Below are positions 14,696 to 41,971 of a stretch of DNA of 64,000 bases, in pieces. The notes under the pieces are model-generated. The model made no database searches and was not told the DNA's origin. It saw nothing but the letters and a program-made list of their open reading frames with translations. Source of the stretch: Patescibacteria group bacterium (lineage in GTDB: Bacteria; Patescibacteriota; Minisyncoccia; UBA6257; 2-01-FULL-56-20). How positions within the stretch are numbered: the stretch's first letter is position 1; each line of letters starts with the position of its first letter. The stretch spans positions 31,408-95,407 of the forward strand of contig JAGXBC010000001.1 of NCBI GenBank assembly GCA_018971305.1, given 5' to 3'. The translations under genes and the position numbers were made by a program.

Positions 14696-15133
14696 TTAGC
14701 GCTTAAATAAACTATTCAGTTCTTCCGATGCTTCTCGTTCGAATTTATCAGCAAGGCGCCAGATTGCCCGATTTATCTTCCTCGTAAGTTTTCTATCTTC
14801 GTGAATCTTGTGCAGATCTCCCCAAGTAAATTGACCCAAAAAACTCGCACGCAGTCTATCGGCAAAATTTATTTTTAAACGCGGCTCTCCGATAAAAAAA
14901 TATGGATTGTTTGCATCTTCCTTATGGTCAGAAAATTTAAATCCCGAACTTCCGGATTCCGCGCGCGCATCGATCTTTGTGCCATCTTTCTTGCATTCTG
15001 CGTGAATGACGAACATACCAGAACCTATACCAAAACAAATTACCAATCTTTGTCCTGGTCTGAGTCTAAACTTTTTATTTCTAGTAAGTCGTTCTTTTCT
15101 CTTGCCTTTAGCCACGTTTCCTCCTTTAGCCAA
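14696..15133 (-). CDS. Hypothetical basic protein (145 aa)
   Basis: ORF between alaS and rpoD with a Lys/Arg-rich N-terminus; no recognised motif. Confidence 0.35.
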   Translation of the reverse strand: MAKGGNVAKGKRKERLTRNKKFRLRPGQRLVICFGIGSGMFVIHAECKKDGTKIDARAESGSSGFKFSDHKEDANNPYFFIGEPRLKINFADRLRASFLGQFTWGDLHKIHEDRKLTRKINRAIWRLADKFEREASEELNSLFKR

Positions 15134-29565: not shown

Positions 29566-31815
29566 TTACTTCTTCAAAATCTCCCTGAATACCTCCGGCG
29601 ATAAACTCACCCTGCCCGTTTCTTTCAATCTTTTTTTGCCTCGCTGCTGTTTTTTCCAAAGCTTCATTTTCCGTGTTCTGTCGCCGCCGTTCTTCCCGAA
29701 ATCGCCGAGTGCTTTCTTCATCGCAGCAATCGTCTCGCGCGCGACAATCCTGCCCATAGCCCGAGCCTGCACCGCTTGGGAAAATTGCTGTTTCGGAAGG
29801 AGCTCTTTTAATCTTTCAACTGAGGTCCGCGCCTCGCGTTCCATATCTTTTTTGGCAACTATGCGAGTCAAAGCCGGCACGACTTCCTCCGCCACCAAAA
29901 TTTCCAATTTCTCAACCTCCGCTTCCGCCTCGCCGTCCAACTCGTAGCTGAACGACGCAAATCCAGCTGATACCGATTTCAACTTGTCATCAAAATCACG
30001 GATAAGTTCGGAAAGCGGCATGCGCGCGATTATGAGCAGATTGTCACCGATATTTTTTATCTCGGAAACTTCAATATCGAAAATTGTTTTAAGATTAACG
30101 ACTTGGCTAAGGTAGGCCTGAGGCGCGAGTATTTCCATTTTTATCATCGGCTGCCAGACACGCTCGGGCTTCATGGGAAATTCGTGCGGTTCCTTGACGA
30201 TAAAATCTTTTCCGCCGTCGCGTACTCGGTAAGCGATAGAAGGAAAGCTTGTTAAAAATTCCAGATTGAATTCTCTCTCCAGGCGGCTCGCAGTAATTTC
30301 AAAGTGGAGCTGACCCAAAAAACCCACTTTTAAACCTCTGCCCAGAGCTTCGTTCGCGTCGGGCTCAAAGCTCAAAGCGGCGTCAGTTAAACGCAAACGT
30401 TCCAACCCCCTCTGTAAATCTTCAAATTTTGTATCTCCGTCCGGATAGAATGCTATAAAGACTACCGGCGCTGGCTCTTTATATCCATGCAATTGCTCCG
30501 CCTTTGAACCTGCAATCGCAATAGTGTCTCCAATATGAACTAGCGCTGGCTCCTTTAGCCCTGTTGCCACATAGCCCATTTCATCGGGACCTATCGCCGG
30601 GGTCGCCTTCAGTTCCGGAGAAAAATAACCGACCTCCTTGATTTTGAATTTTGCTCCCGTGGCGAGAAGAACAACTTCGCTTCCGGAATTAATAGAATTG
30701 TCGCTTACGCCGGGGAAAACCCGCACGAAAGCCAATATGCCTTTGTGATCGTCGTACAAAGAATCAAAAATCAAAGCACGCGGCTCTTGGCCTCCGGTAT
30801 CATCAATTTTTTTAGGCGGCGGCGTTTGCTTCACGACGCCACCCAAAAGTTCTTTAACTCCTTCGCCGGTCTTCGCAGAAATCCTGAATATCTCTTCTTC
30901 TCCAACTCCGAGTAAGTCCGCGGTTGCCTTAATCACTTTATTTATATGAGGCAGGTCCAGGTCTATTTTATTTACTGCTCCGATAATAGTAAGCCCGGCT
31001 TTTCGTGCCGCACGCAAATTAGAAAGTGTCTGCGCCTGGATTCCTTTCGCGCCGTCAATTAAAAGTACTGCCCCTTCAACTGCCGTTAATGCCCGCGAGA
31101 CCTCGTAAGAAAAATCGCTGTGGCCCGGGGTGTCAATCAGGTTGAGTATATACTCAACCTGCTCAGATTTTCGCAGATCAGACGCAGATGTACGCCGATC
31201 GCGAGCGGAATCGTAAACAATTCTTTCGATTTCAACGCCCTTGGGAGCAAAGTTGATCAAGAGAGATATTTTATAATCAGAACCTCGCAGATAAGACCAG
31301 GCTTGTTTTTTTTCGGTATCGCCAATAAAGGGCAGGGCTTTAAGCTCAATTAAAACCTCCTTATTGATCAGCAGGTCAGGATAATAATCGCCAACAGGTT
31401 TATCATCGTATTGTATTTTTAAATGCGGTTGGGCAATAAAATCAACGCCCCGACTTTTTAGCTCAATCTCCAAGGATTTCTGATATACCGATTCACGAAA
31501 TCCTGGACCAATTTTATTCCAAACATCAAAAGCAGCTCCTCGTATTTTGTAGGTTAATTCCTTGTATAAAAATTTGGTATCTGCGTTTATCTGCGTATCA
31601 TCGGCGTTAATCTGCGCAGGATGCTTATAGAGCATCCTGACGGGCGCCATTTTTATAGTAATCCCCCGCTCGCGCTCCAATTCCAATTTATCCAAATACT
31701 GCGGTTTCATCCGCCGCGCGTCCACCGTTCCCGTAATCTCCAAAAGTCGATCCGCCAAAGTTGATTTACCGGAGTCAATATGCGCGATAATTACGAAGTT
31801 TCTTATATTCTCCAT
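29566..31815 (-). CDS. lepA: Elongation factor 4 (LepA) with an in-frame ~156-aa GxxExxY / PD-(D/E)XK-like insertion in the G domain
   Basis: G1 AHIDSGKST, G2 RGITIK, G3 DTPGHSDF, and the LepA-specific C-terminus GDRTRKMKLWKKQQRGKKRLKETGRVSLSPEVF. Between G2 and G3 (residues ~66-221, nt ~31153-31620) lies a GxxExxY-family module GPGFRESVY...YPDLLINKEVLIELK. Start placed at MENIRNF. Confidence 0.85.
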   Translation of the reverse strand: MENIRNFVIIAHIDSGKSTLADRLLEITGTVDARRMKPQYLDKLELERERGITIKMAPVRMLYKHPAQINADDTQINADTKFLYKELTYKIRGAAFDVWNKIGPGFRESVYQKSLEIELKSRGVDFIAQPHLKIQYDDKPVGDYYPDLLINKEVLIELKALPFIGDTEKKQAWSYLRGSDYKISLLINFAPKGVEIERIVYDSARDRRTSASDLRKSEQVEYILNLIDTPGHSDFSYEVSRALTAVEGAVLLIDGAKGIQAQTLSNLRAARKAGLTIIGAVNKIDLDLPHINKVIKATADLLGVGEEEIFRISAKTGEGVKELLGGVVKQTPPPKKIDDTGGQEPRALIFDSLYDDHKGILAFVRVFPGVSDNSINSGSEVVLLATGAKFKIKEVGYFSPELKATPAIGPDEMGYVATGLKEPALVHIGDTIAIAGSKAEQLHGYKEPAPVVFIAFYPDGDTKFEDLQRGLERLRLTDAALSFEPDANEALGRGLKVGFLGQLHFEITASRLEREFNLEFLTSFPSIAYRVRDGGKDFIVKEPHEFPMKPERVWQPMIKMEILAPQAYLSQVVNLKTIFDIEVSEIKNIGDNLLIIARMPLSELIRDFDDKLKSVSAGFASFSYELDGEAEAEVEKLEILVAEEVVPALTRIVAKKDMEREARTSVERLKELLPKQQFSQAVQARAMGRIVARETIAAMKKALGDFGKNGGDRTRKMKLWKKQQRGKKRLKETGRVSLSPEVFREILKK

Positions 31816-36338: not shown

Positions 36339-37211
36339 TTATTTGTAATACGCCCTGTTCTCAACTCGAAAATCAAAATATTGCCAGTTACTGAAACCCG
36401 GCTTGGACATAAAATTATTCAAAACCGATAAATCGTTATCGGCCGGGAAACGCAGGCTGAAATAAAGAGTCGGTCCGTCGTGCGTATCTACCTCCAGCTC
36501 TTCCAAAGACAAATCATTCAAACGAATTTCTTTTACGCTCACGCCGCTGTTCCGTAAAACCTTAAAGATGCTATTAAGTTTATCCATAAACTTTGATGGC
36601 AGAACGGTTCTGCCCAAACCTAAATTTTTCTGGTAATAATCGTCAACGACCATTATCAGGCTTCCCTGCGCAGGAACCGCTCTTTGGAAAACCGTGCCCT
36701 CGTTGTCAAACCACCAGCAACTGTCACCTGTGGAGGCGGCAGACATACCCTGATCACCTTTGGCGTCCGCCTGCATGCCACCCACGTCTGTCTGCGACCC
36801 CCGAAGACACCAAATTCCATACGGCTGTCGTTCTTCGACCATAACGGAAACAGTTCTGTCTTGAAAATCCTTTTCTATCTTCAGACTTTTAATTTCCGGC
36901 ACGAGAGCTAAGTCTTTATCCGACGGTAATTCGGGCCAGATCAAAATATTATTGAAACCGAGAATTGCGTGCGAGAAATTGCCGGCAATAAGCCGCGAAT
37001 CAAGCAGGTCCATAATCGTACTGCTTGCCACCGATTTATTGCCGATAATGTTTATCTCTTTAATGCGGAAAACAGGTGAACGGAAAACAAGCCAGCTTGC
37101 TCCCAAGAGAATCAAATAAACTATTAAAATAATTATCCCAACAAAAATATACAGGCGTTGACGCCTTTTTCTGTCCCGTAATTCCGAAATGTTTATTTCT
37201 GCGTTGGACAT
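36339..37211 (-). CDS. Cell division protein FtsQ/DivIB-like (TM + POTRA)
   Basis: N-terminal TM LYIFVGIIILIVYLILLGASWLVF, then POTRA-like FRIKEINIIGNKSVASSTIMDLL; contains a Gly/Asp-rich insert. Confidence 0.55.
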   Translation of the reverse strand: MSNAEINISELRDRKRRQRLYIFVGIIILIVYLILLGASWLVFRSPVFRIKEINIIGNKSVASSTIMDLLDSRLIAGNFSHAILGFNNILIWPELPSDKDLALVPEIKSLKIEKDFQDRTVSVMVEERQPYGIWCLRGSQTDVGGMQADAKGDQGMSAASTGDSCWWFDNEGTVFQRAVPAQGSLIMVVDDYYQKNLGLGRTVLPSKFMDKLNSIFKVLRNSGVSVKEIRLNDLSLEELEVDTHDGPTLYFSLRFPADNDLSVLNNFMSKPGFSNWQYFDFRVENRAYYK

Positions 37212-37260
37212 CTTTGCCTACATAAATAATAACAATGACTATATAATTAGAAAAACAGCC

Positions 37261-38376
37261 ATGAGAGCGTTATTCCGCAAAATAAGAGATATGCGGTTCC
37301 AGCATGAACCGCTTATTACTGTCATTATCCACCGCGACCGCATTCTCCATAACCTCCGCGAGTTCCAAAAATCCGTCCCTGCCGTCGCGCCAGTACTAAA
37401 AGCCAATGCCTATGGCCACGGCCTTGTTCAGGTCGCCCAAATTCTGGAAAGCGGGCATCTCCCCTTCTTTTGTGTTGATTCCTATGTGGAGGCGATGATC
37501 CTGCGCAACGAAGGCATAAAAACCCCGCTTCTTATAATCGGCTACACGCCGCTCAAAAATATTGAACGCAGCCGACTCAAAAACGTGGCTTATGGAATTA
37601 TGAGTATGGAAGAATTGCAGCGCCTCGCGCGCGACTGCCGGCGTCCTACCAGCATCCATTTGAAAGTTGATACCGGCATGCACAGGCAGGGAATTCTTTT
37701 AGAAGAACTAAGCGAAGCGCTAGACACCCTGGAACGGAACGAAAAAATAATGCTTGAAGGCGTTTATTCCCATCTTGCCGATGCCGATAACGAAAAATCA
37801 ACCCTCACGGAAAAACAAATAGGGCTGTGGAACGCCGCCGCCCGCGAAGCAAGAGACAGATTCCAAAGCGTACGCTGGTTCCACTTGTCCAACACGGCAG
37901 GCAGTAAGTACGCAAAAAATATTGACGCGAACGTTATGCGCCTCGGGCTCGGGCTTTATGGGATAGGCGCAAATAATTTATTGCCGGCACTGGAAATGAA
38001 AACGCGTCTAACATCGGTGCGCAAAATCACTGTGGGCGAAAGCGTGGGCTACAACGCGACCTTCACTGCAAAAAATGAAATGACTGTCGCCACAATTCCC
38101 GTGGGCTACGCCGAAGGCCTGGACAGGCGGCTCTCCAATAAAGGCAGCGCAACTGTTAAGGGCGTCAATTGCCCATTTGTCGGCCGCGTTAATATGAATA
38201 TAACTTCCATCGATGTTTCGCGCGTGCCGAACCCAAAACTGGACGACGAAGTGCTTGTTATCAGTTCCGAGCGCAACGCGCCGAATTCAATTGAGAACAT
38301 GGCGAAAACCTGCGACACAATCCCCTACGAACTCTTGATACGCATCCCGGCACAGATACGCAGATACGAAGAGTAG
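37261..38376 (+). CDS. alr: Alanine racemase
   Basis: PLP-lysine motif VAPVLKANAYGHGLVQVAQIL and C-terminal domain. Start at MRALFRK chosen to avoid the overlap with FtsQ. Confidence 0.85.
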   Translation: MRALFRKIRDMRFQHEPLITVIIHRDRILHNLREFQKSVPAVAPVLKANAYGHGLVQVAQILESGHLPFFCVDSYVEAMILRNEGIKTPLLIIGYTPLKNIERSRLKNVAYGIMSMEELQRLARDCRRPTSIHLKVDTGMHRQGILLEELSEALDTLERNEKIMLEGVYSHLADADNEKSTLTEKQIGLWNAAAREARDRFQSVRWFHLSNTAGSKYAKNIDANVMRLGLGLYGIGANNLLPALEMKTRLTSVRKITVGESVGYNATFTAKNEMTVATIPVGYAEGLDRRLSNKGSATVKGVNCPFVGRVNMNITSIDVSRVPNPKLDDEVLVISSERNAPNSIENMAKTCDTIPYELLIRIPAQIRRYEE

Positions 38377-38392
38377 TAGAAAAATAAAATCT

Positions 38393-38920
38393 ATGCTATT
38401 TTATTTAAAAAAAATAAAGAGGCTGCCTATAATAGTTTCCGCTATATTATTACTCCTGATAGTGGGCGGGGTAGTATGGTTCCGTTCCCAGCAGCAGAGA
38501 GCATTAAATCAAGCAGATCAGCGGGAGTATAATGGTCACGATGATATTTCGATAGTTCAGCTTGCACACGAAGCAGTTAATTATCTAAACGATTTTTACA
38601 ATATGAATCATCAATTTCCTTCGGATCACGAATGGGAAACGCAATTCCTTACACCACACAACCTTGGAACATATAGCGACAATATGCGAACAACATTGCT
38701 TCAATACGATAATCACCAGAATTATTCGGAGGTTATCAATGGCCAAACCCAATATGGACCACGTTCCGACACATTCCTGCTGAGATACGACCTAAGACAC
38801 CCAGAATCGTTTGCTGTAGGTGAACTAGTACAATCTTACTTTTGTATTTTTGGATGCGGCACAGATACAGAATATTGGATCACCAATAAAACCTATAAAG
38901 GTTTTATGACTGCTCCTTGA
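38393..38920 (+). CDS. Hypothetical membrane-anchored protein (175 aa)
   Basis: N-terminal TM LPIIVSAILLLLIVGGVVWF; no other motif. Confidence 0.4.
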   Translation: MLFYLKKIKRLPIIVSAILLLLIVGGVVWFRSQQQRALNQADQREYNGHDDISIVQLAHEAVNYLNDFYNMNHQFPSDHEWETQFLTPHNLGTYSDNMRTTLLQYDNHQNYSEVINGQTQYGPRSDTFLLRYDLRHPESFAVGELVQSYFCIFGCGTDTEYWITNKTYKGFMTAP

Positions 38921-39152
38921 AGAATGGAGCATCACGATTTCCCGGTCGCGGCCCGGCTGCCCGCGGGAGAACGGATACCAGGAATCGTTCTATGGCAAGT
39001 TCAAAGTTGATTTCGGGGACCCGAACCGGTTCAGAACTTTGGGCGAACTGGTTGCCGCTATCTACCGCACGATCTGGGAATACAACCATACAAGGATTCA
39101 TTCCGCGCTCAAGATGCCCCCGTCGGTGTTTGCGGAGAAGATGGCGGCATGA
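38910..39152 (+). pseudogene. IS3/IS481-superfamily (rve integrase-core) transposase, C-terminal remnant only (~70 aa, no start codon)
   Basis: Frame open from the TGA at 38907-38909. It reads SRSRPGCPRENGYQESFYGKFKVDFGDPNRFRTLGELVAAIYRTIWEYNHTRIHSALKMPPSVFAEKMAA*, matching the conserved end of rve-domain transposases (GxP.[DE]N...ESF.G..K.E...F.T..EL...I...I..YN..R.HS.L...P). Confidence 0.6.
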
Positions 39153-39385
39153 GAAAATGAAAAAACGGCGAGGGAATTCGCCGAATCAATGTCTAAAGAA
39201 ACCTATCCATTGCAGCCTAATATCTTGTACCAAGTAGCTTTATTTTTTGGGAAAAAGAGAACAGCACTAACTGCAAGCGTACCCGCGGTTATTCCGTGTT
39301 CAATATTTCCGGAATTCGACCGTTTGGAACCTTGGCCCCAAACTTGTTTTGAGTCTACTATCCAAAATCAAATTACCACATTGTG

Positions 39386-39426
39386 CGAAAAAAAGAAGGC
39401 CGCTGCATAAACTTCATGCAGCGGCC
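39386..39426 (-). terminator. Rho-independent terminator after the 211-aa ORFan
   Basis: 11-bp stem ggccgctgcat(39398-39408)/atgcagcggcc(39416-39426), followed on the minus strand by TTCTTTTTTTCG. Confidence 0.6.
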
Positions 39427-39447
39427 GAAATGCCGAGAGTCAAAGAG

Positions 39448-40083
39448 TTAAATAGACTTGCGGACAGCGGCGAAACGACAGATCGAGATCCACCCGCCGT
39501 CGAAACAGCCCAGGTACAGGACGCGCCCGCCGGAGCCCCTGCCGAGGCACACGACGAAGCGATCGCCGCGCCGGCCCCGCCACACGGAATTGGGGCCGAG
39601 GGCAACTATCGGGAATTCACGCTGCTTCTCCCTGTAAGCTGCGCCGAAAGCCAGAAGTTCCGGCAACTCGGCAGGACGGAAACCCATTCTGTCGAGTCCC
39701 CGCACCGCTCCGTCCGAATCAATGTCACGGTTGAAGTGAATCAATTCCACAACCACTTTTTCCTTGCCGCGATTTGCCCGCAACACGGGAAAGTGTTCCT
39801 CGGTGATGTCGGAATTAACCCAGTCATATTTCCCGGCGGCGATCATCCGTGACAAGGTCAGTGAGTAATAGACGATTACGCAGAAGATGTTCTTCGCGGC
39901 TTGCATCGCTTCCGCTAGAACGTCGGCGATCTTCTCGACCAAAGCATCCGGCGCTTCGCCGTCCTTCACAAGTTCATGAATCTGCTCGTCGGAAGCACCG
40001 AGGTTGCGCAGAGCTTTTTCGAGCTTGGATGCGAAACTTCCGATCCAGCCCGCGCCGCTCACGATTGCAGTTGGTTTTGCCAT
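39448..40083 (-). CDS. Hypothetical protein (211 aa) in a GC-rich island
   Basis: ORF with its own terminator; local GC content is visibly higher (about 58% by eye) than the flanks; no motif recognised. The plus-strand ORF 39349..39852 is its antisense shadow. Confidence 0.5.
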   Translation of the reverse strand: MAKPTAIVSGAGWIGSFASKLEKALRNLGASDEQIHELVKDGEAPDALVEKIADVLAEAMQAAKNIFCVIVYYSLTLSRMIAAGKYDWVNSDITEEHFPVLRANRGKEKVVVELIHFNRDIDSDGAVRGLDRMGFRPAELPELLAFGAAYREKQREFPIVALGPNSVWRGRRGDRFVVCLGRGSGGRVLYLGCFDGGWISICRFAAVRKSI

Positions 40084-40337
40084 TTCAGTTTCTCCTTCAT
40101 CCGCTCATCCCTCGGTCCGATAAACGAACAATCGGACTCCCGGATAAGTCGGCTGCCTGCAGCTTTCAACAAAATCAAAGATTTCAAGGTACGGCTTAAT
40201 TATACACCACAAACCCATATTATGTCAAGCGGTTGAAAAACTGCCTAAATATGGGGAAAAACTCTCTGCTGACCTACGCACTTCTATAAATAAATTAACT
40301 CTCTTCAATTCCGCCTCTCCGAACCGGTTGTGCGGGC

Positions 40338-40424
40338 TCATAAACGGACCTTCTTTAAGGCAACATTACCACCGAACCATCGGCGCGAGAGGCGCTCGTA
40401 CGCTGGGGTGATGTCAGTGACGAT
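40338..40424 (-). pseudogene. Displaced, diverged duplicate of the murI 3' end (28 codons + stop, no start)
   Basis: Minus-strand reading gives IVTDITPAYERLSRRWFGGNVALKKVRL*. The true murI C-terminus is LVTDITPEYVRFSRKWFGKTKLKTVEL* (17/27 identical, same length to the stop); the two copies match at about 79% nucleotide identity over the upstream ~48 nt. Confidence 0.6.
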
Positions 40425-40431
40425 GGTTATC

Positions 40432-40848
40432 TTAAAGATTGACTAAATATGTTTCCAGTAATTTTTCTACCGCGGCCAAGGTTTCCTTTTTTAGTTTCGG
40501 ATTGCTTGCCGCCACCCATTTGGCGAAGTTATAAAATTCCTGATTATCAACCTTGAGCCATTTTTTATTTTTGTAGAGAAAATATAATAGTGCGGTCATT
40601 GCGATACGTTTGTTGCCGTTCTGAAACGGGTGATTTTTCACAAGGAGATAAAAAAATATCGCGGCCTTGCCAAGGAGTCCCGAGTAAGCGGGCTTGCCGC
40701 CGAAACTCTGAAATGGCGCGATAAGGCAGCTTTCAAGAATGTTGGGAAAGCGTGAGCCGAACTCGGGAATAGGCTCGTCCCATGTCATCGTTTCTTTGGC
40801 CAAAGTATAGGCAACGTATTCCACCTCCCTGATCGTGAGCGATTTCAT
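40432..40848 (-). CDS. doc: Doc (death-on-curing) / Fic-family toxin
   Basis: Doc-type Fic motif HPFQNGNKRIAMTAL (HxFx[DN]GNKR); 138 aa; starts 7 nt after the stop of the upstream HTH gene. Confidence 0.8.
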   Translation of the reverse strand: MKSLTIREVEYVAYTLAKETMTWDEPIPEFGSRFPNILESCLIAPFQSFGGKPAYSGLLGKAAIFFYLLVKNHPFQNGNKRIAMTALLYFLYKNKKWLKVDNQEFYNFAKWVAASNPKLKKETLAAVEKLLETYLVNL

Positions 40849-40854
40849 TTCTCC

Positions 40855-41109
40855 TTATTCTTTGCCGAGCAATTTAAGGGTTTGACCGTATTCTTTCACT
40901 GTCTTCCTGACCGCGCTTTCTATTAGGCGCTTCTTGTCCTCACCTAGAACTATACCGAGTATCTCCGGAAACTCGCTCTTCCGCACAACAAAATTACGAC
41001 CAACCTTGCTAGCTTTTATTTCGCCGGATTTGATTTTTTTAAAGACAGCAATTCGGCTTATACCCAAAAGCCTGGCAACCTCGCTTGTAGAAAGCAATTC
41101 TTTTTCCAT
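40855..41109 (-). CDS. Helix-turn-helix (excisionase/MerR-like HTH_17) DNA-binding protein, likely antitoxin of the Doc toxin
   Basis: LLSTSEVARLLGISRIAVFKKIKSGEIKASKVGRNFVV fits the excisionase-family HTH pattern; 84 aa, immediately upstream of doc. Confidence 0.7.
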   Translation of the reverse strand: MEKELLSTSEVARLLGISRIAVFKKIKSGEIKASKVGRNFVVRKSEFPEILGIVLGEDKKRLIESAVRKTVKEYGQTLKLLGKE

Positions 41110-41139
41110 ATAAATGAATATTAATCCTTGTTAACCGAC

Positions 41140-41175
41140 TTGTCAATGGTTAACATATGTTAACCAAACCGCCTT
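41140..41175. promoter_or_regulatory. Triple GTTAAC(C) palindromic repeat in the 70-bp leader of the HTH-doc operon (candidate operator)
   Basis: tGTTAACCgacttgtcaatgGTTAACatatGTTAACCaaacc read directly, between murI stop 41180 and HTH start 41109. Confidence 0.35.
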
Positions 41176-41179
41176 TTAT

Positions 41180-41971
41180 TCATAATTCAACTGTCTTCAG
41201 CTTCGTCTTCCCAAACCATTTACGCGAGAAGCGCACGTACTCCGGAGTGATGTCGGTGACCAAGAGTTCCCTCTTCCAATTTTCGCTCAAGAGCGAATCA
41301 ATTTCCGGGTGGTGCGAAAGATAATCCTTCAGCTTCCGTGGAATAATTTCGTCTTGCGAAACCACGGGCACGCCGGCAATCCTGCGAATCATATTTTTCA
41401 ACGCCGGATAATGAGTGCAACCCAAGATTATTTTTTGTACTTTTTTCCGCTTTAATGGCTTAAGATACTCACGCACGAATGGCTCGGCGCGTTTAAACTC
41501 CCCGCTTTCTATTAACGGCACAAGCATCGGTGCGGCATTCTGGAAAACTTTTACGCCGCGGTTAAGCTTTTTTAACTCCCGTATATAGGCGCCGGAATTT
41601 ACAGTCCCCTGCGTCGCTAAGACTCCTATTTTTTCGATTTTTTTATCTTTAAGCGCTTCTTCGACCGTAGGAATTATCACGCCTAAAACCCGCCGCTTCG
41701 GATAATGCTTCGGCAAATAATTCCTCTGAATTTTCCGCAACGCCTCGGCGGACGCAGTATTACAGGCAACGATGATCAATCCGCAATCTTTTTTAAATAA
41801 ATATCTCACCGCCTCCTCTAAAAACCGGTAAACTGTTTCGGGCGAGCGGTTGCCATAGGGAACGCGCTGCGTATCGCCCAGATAAACATAATCATAACGC
41901 GGCAATTTGCGCACCAAAGCCCGCATAACGAAGAGCCCGCCCAGTCCCGAATCAAAAACGCCGATCTTCAT
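41180..41971 (-). CDS. murI: Glutamate racemase
   Basis: MKIGVFDSGLGGLFVMRAL...IIVACNTASAEAL...KIILGCTHYPAL, typical of MurI. Confidence 0.9.
   Translation of the reverse strand: MKIGVFDSGLGGLFVMRALVRKLPRYDYVYLGDTQRVPYGNRSPETVYRFLEEAVRYLFKKDCGLIIVACNTASAEALRKIQRNYLPKHYPKRRVLGVIIPTVEEALKDKKIEKIGVLATQGTVNSGAYIRELKKLNRGVKVFQNAAPMLVPLIESGEFKRAEPFVREYLKPLKRKKVQKIILGCTHYPALKNMIRRIAGVPVVSQDEIIPRKLKDYLSHHPEIDSLLSENWKRELLVTDITPEYVRFSRKWFGKTKLKTVEL

Follow-up and report, generated by a model that had tools for sequence, protein, structure and literature searches.

A 64-kb stretch of DNA from a Patescibacteria group bacterium (positions 31,408 to 95,407 of contig JAGXBC010000001.1, referred to here as the window) carries, at positions 38910 to 40337, a minus-strand open reading frame (ORF) for a 211-aa protein and the stump of a transposase gene. 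With a probability of roughly 0.8, what survives here is the front half of a Patescibacteria-type diversity-generating retroelement (DGR) that has lost its back half, so that the variable region (VR) of its target gene is orphaned and apparently frozen. The surviving parts are the 211-aa gene, a promoter-like site, the VR, a hairpin, and the first two-thirds of a structured RNA domain. The template repeat (TR), avd, and the reverse transcriptase (RT) gene were absent when the window was searched by tblastn with three family RTs and three family Avd proteins and by blastn with the gene region; the absence of these parts is claimed for these 64 kb. The parts of the element and of the insertion sequence (IS) that interrupts it are as follows.

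38910 to 39150, plus strand: C-terminal remnant of an IS3-family transposase, 80 codons (rve_3 and NCBIfam IS3 matches)
39151 to 39215, plus strand: non-coding right terminus of the IS3-family element (alignment with two other IS copies, L094 and L095)
39216 to 39384, minus strand: truncated 5' part of a structured RNA domain, the hairpin-TR spacer of intact DGRs (nhmmer, blastn, covariation)
39387 to 39426, minus strand: terminator-like GC-rich hairpin (39398-39426) with a T tract (39387-39397) (stem scan; position kept across the family)
39448 to 40083, minus strand: intact gene for the 211-aa DGR variable protein, with an N-terminal helical domain followed by a predicted C-type-lectin-fold domain
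39457 to 39588, minus strand: VR of the target gene, encoding SVWRGRRGDRFVVCLGRGSGGRVLYLGCFDGGWISICRFAAVRK (alignment with VRs and TRs of verified DGRs)
40199 to 40228, minus strand: promoter-like site TTGACA-18-TATAAT (consensus scan, 12 of 12 matches)

The 211-aa protein and its variable region

A homologue search with the 211-aa protein returned at least 200 proteins, mostly of about 205 aa, and those with a named source came from Patescibacteria groups, for example Liptonbacteria, Parcubacteria, and Colwellbacteria. A profile of 46 members, run against 1.84 billion proteins, matched 8,307 cluster representatives at E <= 1e-3, of which 1,790 also reached E <= 1e-30; nearly all were labelled Patescibacteria or Candidate Phyla Radiation (CPR). 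An earlier annotation of the same DNA, made from the letters alone (the sequence-only reading), had described the protein as an ORFan. The protein is present and has no Pfam, NCBIfam, PHROG, or PADLOC match (the sole Pfam line, CMD, had an E-value of 0.05, under the cut-off), but with thousands of relatives it is no ORFan. The PDB matches of the family profile were designed helical repeats aligned to the N-terminal helices only and were judged spurious.

The 211-aa protein shares 55-67% identity with four homologues (P0002, P0005, P0011, and P0012) over 97-100% of the length, and each of the four genes is followed by an opposite-strand bAvd gene and then by an RVT_1 reverse transcriptase. The last 135-150 nt of these genes recur about 350-500 nt downstream as the TR. 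The mismatches between VR and TR fall at TR adenines in 17 of 22, 12 of 14, 19 of 22, and 21 of 28 cases, the first three being independent loci, and the few non-adenine mismatches lie beyond the stop codon. Read in frame, the TR of these loci gives ...WHNWNGNRNVAYLYRNADKRNLNLNWWSNRWNSNYRFAAV...; where it has Asn, different residues stand in the gene copy. The verified VR/TR pairs of the homologues passed the adenine-bias test. Because of the avd/RT context and the adenine-biased mismatches in its homologues, the gene is identified as the variable-protein target of a DGR, and judged by sequence the 211-aa ORF belongs to the Patescibacteria DGR target family.

Intact cassettes show the order of target gene with C-terminal VR, GC-rich hairpin, structured RNA of about 250 nt, TR (about 135 nt), avd on the opposite strand, and RT. 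Among 80 GTDB species loci surveyed, 63 were informative, having at least 2 kb downstream of the family gene. An RT lay 3' of the family gene in fixed geometry in 28 of these 63 loci, 22 had VR/TR pairs in which TR adenines account for at least 70% of the mismatches, and 30 carried stand-alone family genes with no trace of a cassette. The RTs of the relatives are 62-75% identical to one another. In the 90%-identity cluster of P0012, residues 1-164 are near-invariant and at least five different VRs occur, which is natural DGR diversification caught across public assemblies. The differing VRs of this cluster (P0488-P0499, alignment A6) occupy residues 165-200.

The C-terminal 44 residues of the 211-aa protein align with the family VR, and the hypervariable positions coincide with TR Asn/adenine positions in the window gene as well. 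The closest intact cassette is L096, whose target is 66% identical to the 211-aa protein; aligned with its TR over 146 nt, the VR of the window differs at 42 positions, of which 28 are TR adenines. Adenine makes up 6.1% of the coding strand of this VR, compared with 24% in family TRs. A weak tblastn match of the VR to 14981-15088 (E = 0.009) fell in an unrelated 145-aa ORF and was judged a chance match.

The VR-bearing domain of the 211-aa protein has the predicted fold of a C-type lectin, so the VR would be carried on such a fold, and residues that vary across the family fall in the VR stretch, set on an invariant scaffold. By analogy with studied DGRs, RT and Avd would copy the TR-containing RNA into cDNA with misincorporation opposite template adenines, and the cDNA would then replace the VR, rewriting about 15-20 codons on the ligand-binding face of the C-type-lectin-fold domain. 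The same fold is known from the DGR variable proteins Mtd (Bordetella phage), TvpA (Treponema denticola), TaqVP (Thermus aquaticus), and AvpA (nanoarchaeal). The 211-aa family differs from these in its small size (about 205 aa) and its N-terminal helical domain; it shows no detectable sequence similarity to them and no Pfam FGE-sulfatase or DUF1566 match, and its window copy stands without TR, avd, and RT. Some family members of 320-640 aa (P0228, 490 aa; P0275, 550 aa; P0299, 643 aa) match the profile in two or three stretches, which may reflect variable proteins that are fused or multi-domain, or else tandem genes that were mis-called.

A DGR clade restricted to Patescibacteria, with targets lacking known domains, has been described ('clade 2'; Roux et al. 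2021, PMC8144416), and a CPR DGR set was compiled by Wu et al. 2018 (PMC5758913). The locus resembles this clade in its Patescibacteria host, in a target without transmembrane or known domains, and in the usual arrangement of one adjacent target. Those surveys catalogued RT-containing elements, whereas the locus in the window is a truncated cassette that has no RT.

The identical 211-aa sequence was found in three separately deposited NCBI metagenome-assembled genome (MAG) records (MBU6500273.1, MDE2014970.1, and MDE2226399.1), each time beside an identical 80-aa transposase stump, and the same 211-aa sequence was found in Logan contigs. The VR is apparently static now, since it is identical in all of these. 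The reading frame is full length and retains every family-invariant residue, and the putative TTGACA-18-TATAAT site, found by consensus scan only, lies 115 nt 5' of the ATG. The protein would still serve as a ligand-binding protein of fixed specificity. It could instead be a dead relic, that is, an ORF no longer expressed or useful that has merely not decayed. The missing diversification machinery and the decay seen in other loci without RT (L029, L046, L083, L054, and L031, which keep remnants of the spacer RNA) would fit such a state; it is made improbable by the full-length frame with all its invariant residues, by the 12/12 promoter-like site and the terminator-like hairpin on either side of the ORF, and by the many stand-alone family members conserved in other genomes.

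Hairpin, spacer RNA, and the IS3 terminus

The hairpin (39426-39398, minus strand) starts 22 nt past the stop codon of the 211-aa ORF and consists of a 13-bp stem with 8 G-C pairs and a 3-nt loop, followed by TTCTTTTTTT. In having a GC-rich stem-loop with a T run it resembles, by sequence, an intrinsic (Rho-independent) terminator, and it had been annotated as a strong terminator at 39386-39426. The hairpin and its T run on the minus strand are borne out; they are reread here as the conserved post-VR hairpin, apparently at the position of the DGR target-recognition hairpin. A hairpin of differing stem sequence stands at the same position in nearly all family loci (alignment A3), and the segment is also kept 3' of the stand-alone copies L009-L012. 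In the Bordetella phage DGR, a GC-rich hairpin directly after the VR is needed for efficient homing, and its resemblance to a terminator was noted by the authors (PMC3240598). In the window the hairpin is present with its position conserved; the initiation of mutagenic homing (IMH) site, the TR-matching 3' end of the VR, is definable only with the cognate TR. Between the stop codon and the hairpin, most family loci have several short CTTGG/CCTTGG-containing repeats (alignment A3, columns 1-100), and the window copy of this stretch is a 21-nt remnant only (39427-39447).

On the 3' side of the hairpin, the window sequence can be aligned by blastn with the VR-TR spacers of over 20 cassette loci, and this homology always stops at 39216-39219. 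RNAalifold analysis of 21 intact spacers predicted six helices with 44 pairs, 38 of which show compensatory changes. Standard pairing occurred in 96.3% of cells, compared with 74% in shuffles, and none of 500 shuffles reached the observed value; sliding the partners by 1-3 columns lowered the paired cells to 38-48%. An nhmmer profile of 247 positions from the 21 intact spacers matched 30 of the 31 RT-bearing GTDB loci, and most of these matches were full-length, reaching about position 245 and ending at the TR. The domain lies directly upstream of the TR, for example at L002:3418-3686, L015:5708-5965, L041:5645-5900, and in 18 more loci (alignment A4). In the window, model positions 3-169 of 247 matched at 39384-39215 (E = 6e-35). 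Helix 1 (39322-39343) and helices 2/3 (39261-39297) are kept, and the long-range helix 4 is represented by its 5' strand only (39220-39231); its 3' strand and helices 5-6 are absent. A full-length spacer RNA ending at a TR was not found in the window, nor was a second spacer RNA (RNA profile) or a second VR/TR copy (blastn).

No Rfam 15 family matched the RNA domain in three intact loci, and window positions 38300-41300 likewise gave nothing at the spacer or TR. The DGR RNA of Bordetella phage includes structured stretches directly beside the TR (PMC6182149; bioRxiv 10.1101/2023.10.23.563531). The likeness consists in a structured RNA flanking the TR, here with a long-range helix that closes just before it; the Patescibacteria domain differs in spanning 247 positions with six helices and in lying wholly upstream of the TR. 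Published comparative work on DGR RNAs covered 40 nt on the upstream and 100 nt on the downstream side of the TR, and the Patescibacteria domain lies outside that 40-nt upstream interval.

The transposase stump matched rve_3 (E = 6e-14) and positions 295-362 of 369 in the NCBIfam IS3 model. Its frame opens past the TGA at 38907-38909, inside the preceding 175-aa gene (which ends at 38920), and ends at 39150. The start-less stump and its opening at a stop inside the 3' end of the preceding gene had been recognized correctly from the letters, and the proposed IS3/IS481 type can be narrowed to IS3, the IS481 match being weaker. The unrelated IS copies in L094 and L095 could be aligned with the window beyond the transposase stop through ...TGTCTAAAGAAACCnnTCCnTnnCAG, and all three copies diverge after CAG, which corresponds to window position 39215. 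Since the IS copies diverge after 39215 and the spacer match ends there, the right terminus of the IS meets the end of DGR homology at 39215/39216.

What remains of the IS is a 306-bp right-end remnant with no start codon, DDE catalytic core, OrfA, left end, or left inverted repeat. It resembles IS3-family insertion sequences in the rve_3 C-terminal region, in its best NCBIfam match, and in the terminal non-coding sequence common to other copies, and it differs from an intact element in lacking the DDE core, OrfA, and the left inverted repeat. No second copy of the stump was found in the window. All 107 database homologues of the stump are fragments of 48-140 aa, and at L094:3815-5369 one of them adjoins a more complete IS3-like OrfA/OrfB pair. 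Members of this IS lineage are seen mostly as debris or at contig ends. These short homologues gave rise to the idea that the rve fragment is a conserved DGR-associated gene, which was rejected: no DGR locus has one, and the cases inspected were IS debris.

Two-thirds of the RNA domain of a cassette is kept up to the IS terminus, which argues that this copy lost its RT by truncation and did not arise as a remote copy; carrying cassette-type spacer RNA, the VR gene of the window was an adjacent target before the truncation. In the proposed course of events, an IS3-family element would have landed in the gene for the spacer RNA; the left part of the IS, the remaining RNA, the TR, avd, and RT would then have been lost through deletion or rearrangement, and the neighbouring alr segment would have become inverted relative to relatives.

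GC content and the murI-alr neighbourhood

The region had been taken for a foreign island of about 58% GC. The measured GC content of 38910-40337 was 52.0%, compared with a window mean of 46.4% (z = 2.5; reached by 1.8% of other segments of equal length). High GC was limited to two parts, the 636-nt ORF (57.7%, z = 3.6; matched by 0.13% of other segments of equal length) and the 241-nt transposase stump (56.1%), and the stretches 39151-39447 (42.8%) and 40084-40337 (44.9%) were at or below the level of the flanks. The only other part of the window that rivals the GC of the target gene is its first 2 kb (54-59%), in which a 301-aa ORF resembling a tyrosine recombinase lies on the minus strand at 751-1656 (...ARHRDVRTTLRYY...).

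The GC content of the family gene was above that of its flanks in 78 of the 80 loci, by 11.2 points on average, over host GC from about 30% to 64%. Differences from the flanks were compared within 21 intact cassettes (among L015-L088), with the following mean results in percentage points.

VR: +19.9
non-VR part of the target gene: +8.7
whole target gene: +11.6
TR: +9.4
spacer: -2.2, about level with the flanks
avd: -5.0
RT: -4.2

GC content at third codon positions (GC3) was 0.63 in the non-VR part of the targets and 0.43 in the RTs. Because the excess recurs across the family and is limited to target and TR, the GC jump is intrinsic to the DGR target gene family and is no mark of foreign DNA.

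On the other side of the ORF lie the remains of an insertion at the 3' end of murI.

40338 to 40430, minus strand: displaced murI 3' fragment, 30 codons and a stop (translation, direct repeat)
40432 to 40848, minus strand: Doc-family toxin (Pfam Fic, E = 1.6e-10; TIGR01550 DOC_P1)
40855 to 41109, minus strand: HTH_17/excisionase-type antitoxin (HTH_17, TIGR01764)

The murI fragment reads ...ITIVTDITPAYERLSRRWFGGNVALKKVRL*, and its positions 40372-40421 are 80% identical over 50 nt to the true murI 3' end at 41211-41260, a direct repeat with a spacing of 839 bp; the displaced murI fragment of the sequence-only reading is thereby confirmed. The Doc toxin and HTH_17 antitoxin genes lie between the intact murI gene and the displaced tail, with no integrase adjoining them. 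The toxin-antitoxin insertion gave murI a new tail and left the old one behind.

Relatives carry the family gene in this same neighbourhood. The order is thrS-serS-[family gene]-alr-ftsQ in L019, whose serS is 72% identical to that of the window, and thrS-[target-TR-avd-RT]-serS-alr-ftsQ in the Liptonbacteria locus L005. Read in the direction of the target, the window has thrS-p127-serS-murI-HTH-Doc-murI'-target-IS3'-p175-alr-ftsQ, with p175 and alr inverted. The inverted segment, alr with the 175-aa gene, spans 37189-38920 when compared with the serS...alr-ftsQ order of L019 and L005. A rearrangement breakpoint is suggested at 37189-37211, where the predicted starts of alr and of the ftsQ-like gene (36339-37211) overlap divergently. 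A search of JGI metagenomes for closer relatives that might show the locus before truncation gave 53% identity at most.

The idea that a transposase-bearing element brought in a foreign GC-rich island with an ORFan, as one of successive insertions at the murI 3' end, draws on the GC content of the ORF, on its GC3 of 0.68, which exceeds the 0.52-0.58 of alr, murI, serS, thrS, and Doc, and on the position of the ORF between an IS remnant and a displaced murI tail. This origin is very improbable. The GC and codon bias is a family trait seen at 78 of 80 loci over very different host GC, with avd and RT below the flanks; more than 8,000 representatives of the family are known, almost all of them with a Patescibacteria/CPR label; in relatives such as L019 and L005 the gene stands between serS and alr or next to thrS/serS; and the IS end abuts and interrupts the DGR spacer and does not bracket the gene. 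The foreign-island reading is contradicted because GC/codon usage and synteny, the two grounds on which it had staked itself, both go against it. Its picture of a composite of successive insertions holds in part, since the IS3 remnant, the 839-bp displacement by Doc/HTH, and the rearrangement are there and the foreign ORFan is not. The locus is a truncated Patescibacteria DGR beside a separate toxin-antitoxin insertion in the murI tail.

Remote targets and the recurrent loss of cassettes

A VR gene without a neighbouring RT need not be orphaned. Non-adjacent targets were reported for 45 of 372 DGRs (PMC5758913), and remote DGR targets, for example in Treponema (Wu et al. 2018, PMC5758913), likewise consist of a VR gene with a hairpin and no RT beside it. 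A case occurs within the present family: the VR of L019, a stand-alone gene between serS and alr, differs from the TR of L002 (L002:3682-3828, on another contig from the same Hainich H43 aquifer site) by 28 mismatches, 22 of which are at TR adenines, and the L019 gene is by its sequence likely a remote second target of the L002 cassette. In L019 (4845-5441) the N-terminal domain differs.

The VR of the window could accordingly be a live remote target, the local cassette being broken and another DGR beyond the window supplying RT, Avd, and a matching TR to diversify it in trans. The intact gene, the consensus promoter-like site, the retained post-VR hairpin, and the 30 of 63 family loci that are stand-alone are consistent with such a role, as is the precedent of L019. 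We regard it as unlikely, though clearly less so than a dead relic. The cassette-type spacer RNA marks a former adjacent target, and keeping two-thirds of this upstream domain, ending at an IS terminus, is what separates the copy in the window from remote targets; no RT, TR, or Avd lies in the 64 kb; and three MAG records and the Logan contigs all carry the same VR. None of the 120 best matches, out of more than 8,000 that saturated the RT search, lay on the contig of the window.

Several points weigh against the interpretation of the region as a truncated cassette with a frozen VR. A DGR elsewhere in the genome may act on the VR in trans, as the window covers only 64 kb of a 319,838-bp contig. 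Nearly half of the informative loci carry stand-alone genes, among them L019, whose VR fits the TR of the L002 cassette. Related samples may underlie the three identical MAG records, so that 'frozen' draws on thin sampling, and an IMH check requires the cognate TR. The order of events, including the inversion-deletion history of alr, p175, and the IS, is not reconstructable from one genome.

Loss of the back half of the cassette is recurrent in the Patescibacteria DGR clade, as RT-less loci keep remnants of the spacer RNA. Full or partial remnants were found in 5 of 35 RT-less loci, namely L029, which has a degenerate TR besides, L046, L083, L054, and L031. Their coordinates are L029:5696-6079, L046:5666-5917, L083:5601-5819, L054:5745-5872, and L031:1045-1095. 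A bolder proposal, possible but in our view rather doubtful, is that the spacer is an undescribed six-helix RNA domain, confined to the Patescibacteria DGR clade, which RT-Avd needs in order to synthesize cDNA or select its template. The window would then be a natural truncation mutant, and the RT-less remnants, in the window and in these five loci, would represent a recurrent route by which a once-hypervariable ligand-binding protein becomes fixed in CPR genomes. The covarying RNA, kept in 30 of the 31 surveyed cassettes, offers a handle on how template RNAs are built in a very abundant yet unstudied DGR clade.

In summary, the apparent foreign ORFan can be read as a target of hypermutation that an insertion sequence severed from its machinery. 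DGR targets can show local GC jumps as an intrinsic trait, which calls for caution when islands are called in small CPR genomes. DGR surveys centred on the RT do not count remnants that lack it, and the share of RT-less family loci that keep spacer RNA suggests that decay of these cassettes is not rare in this family.

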